Shown here: positions 28,978 to 60,725 of the stretch, one piece after another
How positions within the stretch are numbered: position 1 is the first letter of the stretch
How the letters are laid out: each line of letters starts with the position of its first letter
NCBI GenBank assembly: GCA_029245785.1
Contig: JAQWOR010000074.1
Location: forward strand, 4,758-68,757
DNA length: 64,000 nt
Reading direction: 5' to 3'
Origin: Polaribacter sp.
GTDB lineage: Bacteria; Bacteroidota; Bacteroidia; Flavobacteriales; Flavobacteriaceae
Translations under genes and position numbers: made by a program
Notes under the pieces: generated by a model
The model's database searches: none
The model's input: the letters and a program-made list of their open reading frames with translations, nothing else
What the model was told of the DNA's origin: nothing

Positions 28978-29087
28978 TTACTTTTATCCTAAAAATTCTT
29001 CTTCCTTCTGCCCAATAACTATTGGTTATAAATTGGTAAATAACATCTATTTGAAGATTCAATTTACCAATAGAAATGGTTGTCATT

Positions 29088-29834
29088 TTATGTTATTTCA
29101 TATAAAACGGGCTTACTTGGGCTTGCATCATTTTCAAAAGGCGCAATCATAAGATTTAAAAAATAGGTGCCGTCGTTCACTGAATTTGGCACATAAATAA
29201 ATTCGGTAATTGTAGCATCTAACCTTATTTTACCAGCGGTATTCCAAAATGCATTGTGAGACAACAATTGTCCTCCATCTTTCTCTTTATCAACAGAAGG
29301 TAAATCGATTAATAAATGTTTGATTCCTTTTTCTCGCAAATATACCGCAGCTTCTTCTAACATATATGTTGGGTTTGTATTTGAGTACTGCATCTCTTTT
29401 TTATCTTCTAAATTCGGAAGTGTGCGAATTACCAACGCATCTCTTTTTTTATTTCCTAAGGCAAATTGAAGTTGTTTTTTAGAAATTACAAAATCGTCAT
29501 TCAATTGCTGTGGAGCAATGGTAATTACCTCCGCTAAAAAGAAAAATTGCTGTAAATTTTTATTGACAGAATACACTTTTTCAGTAATATGCCCTACACA
29601 TTCTGTATGTGTAATATGCGAATGTGGATTAAACTCAATCGTATTAAAATTCACATCTGCTCCCTCTGCAACACTTCCAATCCAATCTTCTGACGCTACA
29701 GGGAAAATTTTAGGAGCATCAATATACCAAGCGTTTATATTTTGTTTTGAAGTATCAATAGCAATAGAAATATCAATAGGTTTTGAAAAATCTATCTGGT
29801 ATTTTTTAGAGTTGTATTTTATTTCTGCAATCAT
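29088..29834 (-). CDS. Cyclase family metal-dependent hydrolase (kynurenine formamidase-like)
   Basis: HSHITHTECVGH, LLIDLPSVD, H..., E..., DASPSKPVL motifs. Confidence 0.85.
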   Translation of the reverse strand: MIAEIKYNSKKYQIDFSKPIDISIAIDTSKQNINAWYIDAPKIFPVASEDWIGSVAEGADVNFNTIEFNPHSHITHTECVGHITEKVYSVNKNLQQFFFLAEVITIAPQQLNDDFVISKKQLQFALGNKKRDALVIRTLPNLEDKKEMQYSNTNPTYMLEEAAVYLREKGIKHLLIDLPSVDKEKDGGQLLSHNAFWNTAGKIRLDATITEFIYVPNSVNDGTYFLNLMIAPFENDASPSKPVLYEIT

Positions 29835-29836
29835 TT

Positions 29837-29860
29837 ATACTGAATTTATTTCAGTATCTC
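29837..29860 (+). repeat. REP-like palindrome ATACTGAA-TTTAT-TTCAGTATCTC
   Basis: 8-bp stem; matches copies at 30223, 42902, 60094 and 60181. Confidence 0.8.
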
Positions 29861-29872
29861 TTAATCGAAATA

Positions 29873-30158
29873 CTATAACTCCAAATATAAGTTTTTTAAT
29901 TGAGGGTTATTCATTTTTATCAAATTCCATTTCCATTCTTTATGCCAATTTTTTAATTGTTTTTCTCTTAAAAACGCTTTATGAAAGTTTTGAATATTTT
30001 TCAAAATACATCAATTCATTTACACTATACTTCTTTGTAAACCTAGCTGCTTTACCATCAATATAAAGCTCAACTCTTTTCTTTAAATCTTTTGTAGCTC
30101 CTATATATAGAACTGTTTTGTTTTTATTTGTCAGAATATACAAATATCCTTCAATCAT
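29873..30158 (-). pseudogene. Small GIY-YIG nuclease (YazA/UPF0213-like), frameshifted by one extra A; not in the ORF track
   Basis: MIEGYLYILTNKNKTVLYIGATKDLKKRV...; removing one A from tcAAAActtt (29988-29991) restores ...KYSNFHKAFLREKQLKNWHKEWKWNLIKMNNPQLKNL, 94 aa. Confidence 0.85.
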
Positions 30159-30222
30159 AGCATTTTTTTGAAGTGAATCTTAAAAATATGGAAACTAATT
30201 AAAAGTTCAATTAGATTTTAAC

Positions 30223-30245
30223 AGATACTGAAACTAGTTCAGTAT
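30223..30245 (-). repeat. REP-like palindrome, inverted relative to the 29837 copy; contains the hemW stop codon
   Basis: AGATACTGAAACTAGTTCAGTAT. Confidence 0.75.
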
Positions 30246-31379
30246 AAACAATTCACTTGCCAAACCGTCTGCCAAGAATTTTCCTTTTGAGGTTGTTTTT
30301 AGATGTTGACGCTGCTCAGTGGTGTTTTTTTCTATTAGCAACAATCCTTGTTTGATAAACTTCTCTGCAGATGCTACCAATTGCTCTCTACACTTTATAC
30401 CAAATTCTTGTTCAACCCGGTTTAATGAAATACCCCAAATAGTTCGCAAACCTGTCATGACATACTCATTAAAGCGATCCTTTAGTGTCAACTCTTCTGT
30501 TTCACTTGGTAGTGTGTTTTCTTGAAGCGCCTTAATGTATATTGTATTGTTAGCAACATTCCAGCTTCGATGTGTTTTATTGAATGAGTGTGCTGATGGA
30601 CCAATTCCTAGATATGTTTTACTCAACCAATAACTGGTATTATGTTTCGAAAAATAAGTAGGTTTTCCGAAATTAGAAATTTCATATTGAACAAACCCTT
30701 GTTTTTCAGTTTCTGAAACCAAAATATCAAAATGCTCACGAGCAAGTTCTTCATCTACATTTGGATATTTTCCTTGTTTGATAAATGATGCCAATGCTGT
30801 TTTTGGTTCTACTGTCAAAGCATAACTAGAAATATGATTTACTCCAAAACCAAAGGCGATCTGTAAATTTTCTTTCCAGCGTTTGTTGCTCATGTTCGGA
30901 ATTCCATACATTAAATCGATTGTAATATTATCAAAATGGCGAGTCGCCATTGACAAGCAATTTTTCGCTTCATCAGAAGAATGAGCACGGTGCATCTTTT
31001 GTAAATCTTCTTCAAAAAAAGACTGAATTCCAATGCTTAACCGATTAATTGGACTTTTAGATAATTGGAGTATTAGATGTTCAGACAAATCATCTGGATT
31101 GGCTTCTAAGGTAATTTCTGGGCTTTCTGAAACTTGGTAGTTTTTATAAATTGTATCTAACAATCGTTGTAACTCATCAATTGTTAATAAAGAAGGAGTG
31201 CCTCCTCCAAAATAAATGGTTTCTACAACTTCACTTTCTAATTCTCGATTGCGAATTTCGAGCTCTTTAACCATCGCAGCAATCATTTTTTCTTTCTTTT
31301 TTAGTGACGTAGAAAAATGAAAGTCGCAATAATGACAGGCTTGTTTGCAAAATGGGATATGTAGATAAATTCCGGACAT
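30234..31379 (-). CDS. hemW: Radical SAM heme chaperone HemW
   Basis: YLHIPFCKQACHYCDF (CxxxCxxC), FGGGTPS, YEISNF, GIGPSAHS. Confidence 0.92.
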   Translation of the reverse strand: MSGIYLHIPFCKQACHYCDFHFSTSLKKKEKMIAAMVKELEIRNRELESEVVETIYFGGGTPSLLTIDELQRLLDTIYKNYQVSESPEITLEANPDDLSEHLILQLSKSPINRLSIGIQSFFEEDLQKMHRAHSSDEAKNCLSMATRHFDNITIDLMYGIPNMSNKRWKENLQIAFGFGVNHISSYALTVEPKTALASFIKQGKYPNVDEELAREHFDILVSETEKQGFVQYEISNFGKPTYFSKHNTSYWLSKTYLGIGPSAHSFNKTHRSWNVANNTIYIKALQENTLPSETEELTLKDRFNEYVMTGLRTIWGISLNRVEQEFGIKCREQLVASAEKFIKQGLLLIEKNTTEQRQHLKTTSKGKFLADGLASELFILN

Positions 31380-42901: not shown

Positions 42902-43019
42902 ATCCTGAACTTTTACGCTAAACTTGTTTCAGTGTACTTCAGGATCTGTTATTTTATTTTGTTTTATTCATGAGATTCCGAAACAATGCTAAAAATAAAT
43001 TCAGCACAAGGTTCGGAAC
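42902..43019. repeat. Inverted doublet of nested REP-like palindromes between etfB and etfA
   Basis: ATCCTGAAC[TACGCTAAACTTGTTTCAGTGTA]CTTCAGGATCT and GAGATTCCGAA[TGCTAAAAATAAATTCAGCA]TTCGGAA. Confidence 0.75.
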
Positions 43020-60089: not shown

Positions 60090-60093
60090 TTTT

Positions 60094-60204
60094 ACACTGA
60101 ACTTGTTTCAGTGTCTCAGTATCCATTCTTTCAGAAGCTCTTAAAAGAACCTTAAACAGTAAACTAAATCAGGCCTTAATGAGATCCTGAAATAAATTCA
60201 GGAT
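60094..60204. repeat. Inverted REP doublet between tRNA-Ser and rimM; the right copy contains the rimM stop codon
   Basis: ACACTGAACTTGTTTCAGTGTCTC (60094-60117) and GAGATCCTGAAATAAATTCAGGAT (60181-60204). Confidence 0.8.
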
Positions 60205-60725
60205 AAATACATCTCTATCAACCCCGATGGAGTCTCTACTTCAATAATTTGACGCTTTCTATCTACTTTTTTTATAAAATGGTCAATCATCGGAATAAAA
60301 ACGTCTTTATCTCCGTTCTTAATTTCAAACAATGGTTGTGCCGTTTTATCATTGATTCCGTGAATAACTCCCACTTCTCCATAATTTACATCTACCGCTT
60401 TGAAACCGATAATCTCATGAAAATAAAATTTATTCCCTGATAATTTTGGCAACAAATCTAAAGGCAAATACACGTCAGATTTTAAAATGCTATCTGCCTC
60501 TGCTTCTGAAGCGATTCCTTCAAACTGAACTCGCAATTGATTTCCTTTTTGAAGCAAACTTTTTTTAATAAAAAATGGAATCAAGTTATTGCCTAAATCG
60601 ACAAAAATTGATTCCATTTCTTTATACAATTCGGGTTCATCTGTATCTAATTTGATAACAACCTCACCCTTAAAACTATGTTTTCTAACAATCTTGCCTA
60701 AATAAAAACAATCTTCTTTACGCAT
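60198..60725 (-). CDS. rimM: Ribosome maturation factor RimM
   Basis: LGKIVRKHSFKGEV, FYFHEIIG, Q..., FIP, PSGLI. Confidence 0.93.
   Translation of the reverse strand: MRKEDCFYLGKIVRKHSFKGEVVIKLDTDEPELYKEMESIFVDLGNNLIPFFIKKSLLQKGNQLRVQFEGIASEAEADSILKSDVYLPLDLLPKLSGNKFYFHEIIGFKAVDVNYGEVGVIHGINDKTAQPLFEIKNGDKDVFIPMIDHFIKKVDRKRQIIEVETPSGLIEMYLS

Follow-up and report, generated by a model that had tools for sequence, protein, structure and literature searches.

A broken GIY-YIG gene between two inward-facing hairpins

We analysed a stretch of 64,000 nucleotides (hereafter the window) from a Polaribacter sp. genome (GenBank assembly GCA_029245785.1, contig JAQWOR010000074.1, positions 4,758 to 68,757), in which a small GIY-YIG nuclease gene lies between two inverted copies of a short hairpin-forming repeat at the junction of hemW and a putative cyclase gene. 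The gene is on the minus strand at 29873-30158 and comprises 94 codons when a frameshift caused by one extra A is read through. The hemW-cyclase spacer (~400 bp) carries two overlapping open reading frames (ORFs) in adjacent frames, at 29979-30158 (59 aa) and 29873-30004 (43 aa); the 59-aa piece alone matched Pfam family PF01541 with an E-value of 7e-11, and the joined 94-aa product matched it with an E-value of 1.8e-14. PF01541 spans residues 4-77 of the 94 aa, Pfam gave no further domain, and the alignment with six homologues ran over the full length; the product is thus a single-domain GIY-YIG protein, resembling the Ssn nucleases described below. Searches of NCBIfam and of Protein Data Bank (PDB) sequences with the window protein returned weak UvrC and UPF0213 matches and no family name. 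A first-pass annotation made from the letters of the window had described a 94-codon GIY-YIG gene with one extra A between inverted palindromes at this junction, and the ORFs, the PF01541 match and the exact occurrences of ATACTGAA-N5-TTCAGTAT on either side of the gene all bore this description out.

The extra A lies in an A-run at 29988-29991 (minus strand), as judged from the two adjacent-frame ORFs and from intact orthologues, which, the nearest relative's included, read ...EKYSNFH... at this point. The frame is lost after codon 57, upstream of the invariant Arg-Glu-Lys motif that holds the catalytic Glu, and Glu65 is thereby out of frame. A second degenerative change is found at the codon for Tyr32 (30063-30065, minus strand), four residues past the conserved Arg, where all six aligned homologues have His; we take this position to correspond to His31 of I-TevI. 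The catalytic core (Tyr, Tyr, Arg, His, Glu) is therefore not intact in the window copy, and because the frameshift is accompanied by replacement of the conserved His, the copy is, on its sequence, most likely dead, that is, a pseudogene. Programmed frameshifting was considered and not favoured, since most of 80 homologues fetched from public genomes have uninterrupted frames and the window copy has the His-to-Tyr change as well. Identity to intact orthologues at the same hemW-cyclase junction was 77% for relative G024 by alignment (74% by tblastn) and 61% for relative G007. The broken gene is the sole member of its clade found in the assembly, which is 90% complete.

The cores of the two flanking palindromes match ATACTGAA-N5-TTCAGTAT exactly at 29837-29857 and 30225-30245, and the window as a whole has four matches at no more than two mismatches, against 0.03 expected. 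The upstream hairpin (30222-30248, minus strand) reads TTTAT-A-CTGAA-CTAGT-TTCAG-T-ATCTG on the gene strand (-5.3 kcal/mol, z -3.8), and the downstream hairpin, inverted relative to it (29834-29860, plus strand), reads TTTAT-A-CTGAA-TTTAT-TTCAG-T-ATCTC (-5.4 kcal/mol, z -4.8). The pair faces inward, with the TTTAT tags outside and the ATCTC and ATCTG tails on the gene side. Folded as single-stranded DNA, the clean hairpins of the window form an 8-bp stem and a 5-nt loop with z about -3.7 to -5.4. Both neighbouring genes reach into or up to the repeats: the upstream hairpin has the hemW stop codon (TAG, 30234-30236) in its loop and the final codons of that gene as its 5' arm, and the cyclase ATG (29832-29834) abuts the outer tag of the downstream hairpin. 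These neighbours, assigned by Pfam and by junction comparison, are hemW (30234-31379, minus strand; radical SAM and HemN_C domains) upstream and the putative cyclase gene (29088-29834, minus strand; PF04199) downstream, and they directly adjoin one another in most relatives. A search of Rfam at a permissive threshold over 29000-31000 gave chance snoRNA-level matches only, with no family that fits the hairpins.

Association of the nuclease clade with the hairpin

Homologues of the window protein were compared with respect to their flanks both within the genus (61 genomes) and in public genomes. In the genus, hairpins of the CTGAA type, or of a CCGAA variant, stood on both sides of 11/11 homologues at an identity of at least 47%, while 0/19 more distant paralogues had a CTGAA-type hairpin, being flanked by other GTCAT-tagged hairpins instead. 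The 11 homologues occupy at least four junctions, namely hemW/cyclase, two with hisA-like and hisB-like downstream genes, and one before a bioA-like gene (hisA-, hisB- and bioA-like names were read by eye from translations). Among the 80 public loci (49-77% identity), which came from Flavobacteriaceae, Crocinitomicaceae, Cytophagales, Bacteroidales, Saprospiraceae, Balneolaceae and Chloroherpetonaceae, a hairpin fitting the pattern C[TC]GAA-N4-6-TTC[AG]G lay within 200 bp of every homologue, on both sides in 68 and on one side in 12 (0 on neither). Its commonest form was ACCCTGAA-CTTGT-TTCAGGGT upstream and the inverted ATGCTGAA-CTTGT-TTCAGCAT downstream, with a CGTC tag in some copies. Because all 80 homologues adjoin this hairpin type and the type follows the protein clade, the comparison of flanks indicates that the nuclease clade and the CTGAA hairpin are a specific pair and not a product of chance. 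The proposal of the first-pass annotation that a small GIY-YIG nuclease is the hairpin's specific partner was thus upheld by both samples.

Hairpin density followed the same division. The median was 16.6 per Mb for the 11 genus genomes that have the clade, against 6.0 per Mb for the remaining 50, a difference of ~2.8 times (Mann-Whitney p 1.7e-6, phylogeny not corrected for).

Copies of the nuclease clade lying upstream of a hisB-like gene are found in Polaribacter, Winogradskyella, Flavivirga, Algibacter and others (loci L196, L202, L206, L208, L211, L213, L215, L216, L218, L223 and L226), where each is preceded by a hairpin with a 12-13-bp stem, GAAATTRATnrAA followed by 4-6 nt and the complement.

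The hemW-cyclase junction in relatives

The gene hemW adjoins the cyclase gene in 27 genomes of the genus and order, the window genome (G000) and 26 relatives. A GIY-YIG gene was present at the junction in only 2 of the 26 (G024, where it is intact, and G007), the window genome being the third case. Most relatives are empty, with a gap of merely 7-20 bp in several of them; in relative G014 the last ~40 bp of the nuclease gene (a 3' stub) and the downstream hairpin remain, and relatives G020, G012 and G002 hold single hairpins or remnants without the gene. In a tree of hemW plus cyclase sequences the window genome, G014 and G024 form one clade and G007 falls elsewhere. Because the three share a clade, their states would fit a single ancestral insertion now in decay.

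A cassette also fills this junction in several Flavobacterium metagenome-assembled genomes (MAGs), in F. terrigena and F. lacus and in Salinimicrobium, and in every case the upstream hairpin includes the stop codon of hemW. From this patchy distribution of filled and empty alleles it would follow that the junction was either entered repeatedly or occupied anciently and often cleared. Judged across these genomes, the nuclease gene is not a fixed core gene. Two outcomes would have spoken against the pairing as first proposed, GIY-YIG homologues with no enrichment for the flanks and a gene fixed in the core of relatives; neither was seen, because the homologues are enriched for the flanks and the relatives' junctions are mostly empty.

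In G024, a tandem array of ~38-bp units, each containing a partly degenerate CTGAA hairpin, lies downstream of the intact orthologue (L002:2241-2570, the same record as L185, JBDNGO010000067.1); the array ends with two hairpin-in-hairpin composites right before the cyclase ATG.

Dispersed hairpins and gene-less doublets

The window genome (2.29 Mb, 34% G+C, 81 contigs) holds 38 sites of CTGAA-N5-TTCAG, compared with 3 for the reversed control, so the genome-wide count called for by the first-pass annotation came out in favour of a dispersed family. About 24 of the 38 sites fit [GTC or TTT]AT-N-CTGAA-YTTRT-TTCAG-N'-ATCT. The base pair beside CTGAA varies among A:T, T:A, G:C and C:G, a covariation that keeps the stem, and on the tail-bearing strand G:T occurs ~9 times against ~3 for A:C, an excess that points to one particular strand as the one that would fold. 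The copies in the window have a TTT tag, and a GTC tag is found in family copies C16:30355, C19:2413 and C69:5077 of the same genome and in loci L037 and L041. Some CTGAA hairpins of the genome cap longer, G+C-rich stems that resemble terminators or are nested within a further CTGAA hairpin (C53:45044, C7:9424, C55:71333, C64:51490 and C11:16835), and they look as if loops were insertion targets.

Two hairpin doublets in the window have no gene between them, and both had been listed in the first-pass annotation as empty versions of the inward-facing pair. The description held fully for the interval between tRNA-Ser(GGA) and rimM, where 60091-60117 and 60181-60207 form a clean inward-facing pair. 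Its first hairpin (60091-60117, plus strand), TTTAC-A-CTGAA-CTTGT-TTCAG-T-GTCTC, adjoins tRNA-Ser(GGA) (-6.7 kcal/mol, z -3.7), and its second (60181-60207, minus strand), TTTAT-C-CTGAA-TTTAT-TTCAG-G-ATCTC, has the rimM stop codon (TGA, 60198-60200) in one arm (-6.5 kcal/mol, z -5.4). For the doublet in the etfB-etfA interval (42902-42948 and 42972-43019) the inward orientation stood, but each member proved to be a composite in which one hairpin is nested in the loop of another. By folding, the member at 42902-42948 (plus strand) has the outer stem ATCCTGAA...TTCAGGAT-CTG with a degenerate second hairpin in its loop, and the facing member at 42972-43019 (minus strand) has an outer TTCCGAA...TTCGGAA-TCTC, a CCGAA variant, around an inner GCTGAA...TTTAGC.

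Both doublets look like lineage-specific gains. The rimM/tRNA-Ser junction measures 10-15 bp in the closest relatives and is hairpin-free, and none of 29 relatives has a GIY-YIG gene there; the etfB/etfA composite pair is unique to the window genome among 24 genomes, being absent in 23 relatives, and none of these 23 has a GIY-YIG gene at that junction. In-place loss of a nuclease gene was considered as the source of the two doublets and rejected, because no sampled relative has the gene at either place; at the hemW junction, by contrast, such loss does account for the G014 remnant. The idea that doublets replicate as units was likewise rejected: in an all-against-all comparison of hairpin regions only 31-38 bp were common, which is the hairpin itself, and the doublet spacers were unrelated, so that with just ~30 bp of hairpin shared between sites the doublets were not copied as units.

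The stop codons of both hemW (TAG, 30234-30236) and rimM (TGA, 60198-60200) lie within hairpins, and the final codons of both genes supply the tag and the 5' arm (TTTAT-N-CTGAA). Relatives without the hairpins have comparable TTTAT-like codons at the ends of hemW and rimM, possibly the sign of a favoured site of insertion.

Relation to Ssn nucleases and other repeat systems

The closest published counterpart is SsnA of Neisseria meningitidis, a 94-aa single-domain GIY-YIG protein (CDD cd10448) that binds the hairpin repeat NTS (CGTCATTCCCGCGMAVGCGGGAATCYRG) solely as single-stranded DNA and on one strand, cutting just upstream of it (Chenal et al., Nat Commun 2025, PMC11893778). According to the same study, related hairpins (SRM) border Ssn homologues from many phyla, standing on both sides in 42%; each of the four homologues tested cut at its own repeat, and the activity was hydrolytic cutting of single-stranded DNA, double-stranded DNA not being cut (PMC11893778). 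The effect demonstrated for SsnA was modulation of natural transformation in Neisseria, not mobility, although the authors pointed to the layout NTS-ssnA-NTS, which resembles an insertion sequence (IS), and to the parallel with transposases associated with repetitive extragenic palindromic (REP) sequences; Bacteroidota are unmentioned in the main text (PMC11893778). The pairing of such a nuclease with such a hairpin is therefore already published and biochemically tested as Ssn/SRM.

Over residues 3-94 the window protein shares 40% identity (E 9e-20) with the product of a GIY-YIG gene in a gammaproteobacterial MAG (L143); an exact 28-nt NTS lies 2 nt ahead of the ATG of this gene. Identity to the product of locus L142 is 42%. 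This MAG gene served as the yardstick because the Neisseria loci gave no small GIY-YIG gene flanked by NTS: in the NTS-bearing N. lactamica NS19 the sole small GIY-YIG gene found was YhbQ-like (91 aa) and without NTS flanks, and none was found in N. mucosa. The N. lactamica NS19 gene (L181:1489-1764) overlaps the end of a membrane-protein gene and represents a type of small GIY-YIG gene distinct from those that hairpins flank. An NTS pair 443 bp apart (L068) had no GIY-YIG ORF inside.

The window locus resembles Ssn/SRM in its ~94-aa single-domain GIY-YIG protein, in the inverted, oriented hairpins that bracket the gene, in the dispersal of the same repeat in the genome and in partner hairpins that differ by homologue, each with a tag, an AT-starting stem, a short loop and an ATC-type tail. 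It differs in its AT-rich stem with a CTGAA core, which the SRM motif misses, in its TTT tag, in its flavobacterial host and in being a pseudogene copy. On size, single domain, inverted oriented flanks, dispersed copies and homology, we consider it probable that the window locus belongs to the Ssn system and has a hairpin of a variant form; the SRM motif and the tag do not fit. Several points weigh against this assignment. The SRM motif HGTCWYN(0-2)YYVSBRHN(0-5)WNVSBRGN(0-2)RNCYNB had 0 matches at the four clean window hairpins and 0 in the whole genome, compared with 1-4 in shuffles; the window copies carry TTT where the tag of the family is GTC; the homology to SsnA was gauged indirectly, through the NTS-adjacent gene of a gammaproteobacterial MAG; and some genus genomes have many CTGAA hairpins but no detectable homologue, the extreme being G045 with 72 sites. 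In addition, the extra A could be an assembly error, in which case the gene need not be a pseudogene.

The genome encodes seven other GIY-YIG matches besides UvrC, six of them full-length small paralogues and one a contig-end fragment. Four paralogues have a flanking repeat family of their own, with GTCATTCCTGCGAAAGCAGGAATC on contig C7, GGCTGAGCGTAGTCGAAGCC on C54, GTCAGTTCGAGTG...GTATCGAGAAC on C62 and tRNA-end duplications on C55 and C47, and exact flanking inverted repeats of at least 14 nt occurred at 3/7 GIY-YIG loci compared with 6/1974 crude genes. The C7 repeat nearly equals the core of the 28-nt NTS, and the C7 paralogue is 36% identical to the window protein by alignment (39.5% by tblastn, E 3.6e-16). 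On C55 (70103-71577) two small GIY-YIG genes stand in tandem, each after a duplicated 3' end of a tRNA-Leu gene, and on C47 (40557-41665) a small GIY-YIG gene has a disrupted tRNA-Pro-like copy on one side and an intact tRNA-Pro on the other; neither of these tRNA-linked loci has CTGAA hairpins at its immediate flanks. The SRM motif finds no site in this genome although several hairpin families flank GIY-YIG genes there, and motif-based surveys would under-count AT-rich genomes.

The hairpin also resembles in design the CGTC-tagged REPs, which were described from five phyla, Bacteroidetes among them, with head-to-head dimers predominating, and which were reported as "apparently lacking a dedicated transposase" (Di Nocera et al., BMC Genomics 2013, PMC3733652). 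Shared features are an 8-9-bp stem starting A-T, a 4-5-nt loop, a short unpaired tail, the head-to-head dimers and a position near or inside gene ends. A CGTC/TGTC tag is present in some copies of the family (C69:5077 of the window genome, L037 and L041), not in the window's own, and whereas no enzyme gene was found in that study (PMC3733652), a GIY-YIG gene is the constant partner both here and in Chenal et al.

The first-pass annotation had drawn an analogy with REP sequences, their inverted doublets (REPINs) and the REP-associated tyrosine transposases (RAYTs; HUH/Y1 enzymes related to IS200/IS605). Part of it holds: an enzyme gene lies between inverted copies of a dispersed hairpin, the repeat type goes with the enzyme clade, inverted hairpins form doublets, and some gene copies are long-lived at fixed sites. 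The remainder does not, since the enzyme is a GIY-YIG hydrolase in place of an HUH tyrosine transposase, the hairpins have no GTAG tag, the doublet does not repeat as a conserved unit, and genomes here have several GIY-YIG paralogues where RAYT systems have one. Genes for free-standing GIY-YIG homing endonucleases, such as the Seg genes of T-even phages, are likewise small and selfish-looking, lie amid conserved genes and occupy one allelic site patchily, with empty alleles in relatives, but the window protein has no DNA-binding domain, its relatives cut single-stranded DNA only, and hairpin repeats are always present.

Origin and spread of the cassette

We regard the locus as probably a decaying module of the Ssn type in a Flavobacterium-like genome, with a gene for a ~94-residue GIY-YIG protein between two inverted partner hairpins. 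By homology with SsnA, an intact copy of the enzyme would bind the hairpin on one strand of single-stranded DNA and cut just 5' of it. The hairpin itself would be an AT-rich variant of the CGTC-tagged REP or SRM design, of the form [GTC or TTT]AT-N-CTGAA-5 nt-TTCAG-N'-ATCT; it accompanies one nuclease clade across Bacteroidota. The cassette would have entered the hemW-cyclase junction in an ancestor of the window genome and its two nearest relatives and would then have met three fates, remaining intact in one relative, acquiring a frameshift in the window genome and shrinking to a 3' stub and one hairpin in the other relative. The gene-less hairpins would belong to the same dispersed family, having inserted in particular lineages at the ends of genes and within other hairpins' loops.

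How the hairpins come to new sites is less clear-cut. One possibility, which we hold to be real but rather doubtful, is a REPIN/RAYT-like process in which the GIY-YIG nuclease excises and inserts hairpins or doublets through single-stranded DNA, the gene-less doublets being non-autonomous copies mobilised in trans. Several observations are consistent with it: the lineage-specific gains at rimM/tRNA-Ser and etfB/etfA, sites that are hairpin-free in the closest relatives and have no GIY-YIG gene in 29 and 23 relatives, respectively; the hairpins nested in loops, both of other hairpins and of terminator-like stems; the greater hairpin density in genomes with the clade; and the amplification of hairpins into a tandem array beside the intact gene of G024. 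The literature leaves room for such an enzyme, CGTC-type REPs having been reported without a dedicated transposase (PMC3733652), and Chenal et al. raised the analogy too (PMC11893778). Against it, the Ssn enzymes tested cut single-stranded DNA by hydrolysis and are not known to carry out strand transfer; sites share only the ~30-bp hairpin and doublet spacers are unrelated, unlike REPINs; the window genome keeps 38 sites though its sole gene of the clade is broken; and G045 has 72 sites and no homologue. In a form freed of the doublet as a unit, CTGAA hairpins, and CGTC-type REPs generally, might be copied to new sites via single-stranded DNA by a partner Ssn nuclease and land just 3' of TTTAY/GTCAY at gene ends and in hairpin loops, a suggestion that we put forward tentatively.

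A second possibility, and in our judgement an unlikely one, invokes no transposition: as in homing, homologous recombination in the conserved genes on either side would carry the cassette from genome to genome into the same allelic junction, perhaps following a nuclease cut, and gene-less doublets would be the remains of in-place deletion. Any such cut would possibly fall on the empty allele or on incoming single-stranded DNA. This reading draws on the presence of the cassette at hemW-cyclase in separate lineages (the window clade, G007, F. terrigena, F. lacus and Salinimicrobium) with many empty junctions between them, on the in-place decay to a 3' stub and one hairpin in G014 and the hairpin remnants without a gene in G012 and G002, on the recurrence of the hisC/hisB copy at one site in several genera, and on the modulation of natural transformation by SsnA in Neisseria (PMC11893778). 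It fails at rimM/tRNA-Ser and etfB/etfA, where no sampled relative has a GIY-YIG gene and in-place loss cannot explain the doublets; the protein lacks a DNA-binding domain, and its relatives leave double-stranded DNA uncut; and one old insertion with many losses would also yield the patchiness. Homing-type entry of the cassette and REPIN/RAYT-like spread of the hairpins are not mutually exclusive.

A reading of the hairpins as normal signals of the host (terminators, RNA stabilisers or operator sites), with the gene between two of them by chance, is very improbable: they do lie at gene ends, where they give stop codons and start-codon context, some are at the tips of terminator-like stems, and they persist in genomes without the gene, but 80/80 homologues across several orders adjoin the hairpin type, which switches with the protein clade, no T-run follows the hairpins and no Rfam family matched.

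Implications for the Ssn family

The feature in the window is itself most likely a dead copy of a known kind of element. Read as a decaying Ssn-type module, the locus adds a Bacteroidota clade to the system of Ssn nucleases and hairpin repeats, with a CTGAA-core partner hairpin that the published motif does not detect, and it documents filled, decayed and empty alleles of one gene junction. It also supplies a predicted pair of enzyme and target for the single-stranded-DNA tools proposed in the Ssn paper, and F. terrigena DSM 17934 and F. lacus CGMCC 1.12504 are cultured hosts in which to ask if such nucleases spread hairpins. If the hairpins are indeed copied by an Ssn nuclease, a hydrolytic GIY-YIG protein of ~94 residues would fill the place of the enzyme long missing from this repeat superfamily, and it would represent a new kind of transposase-like protein.

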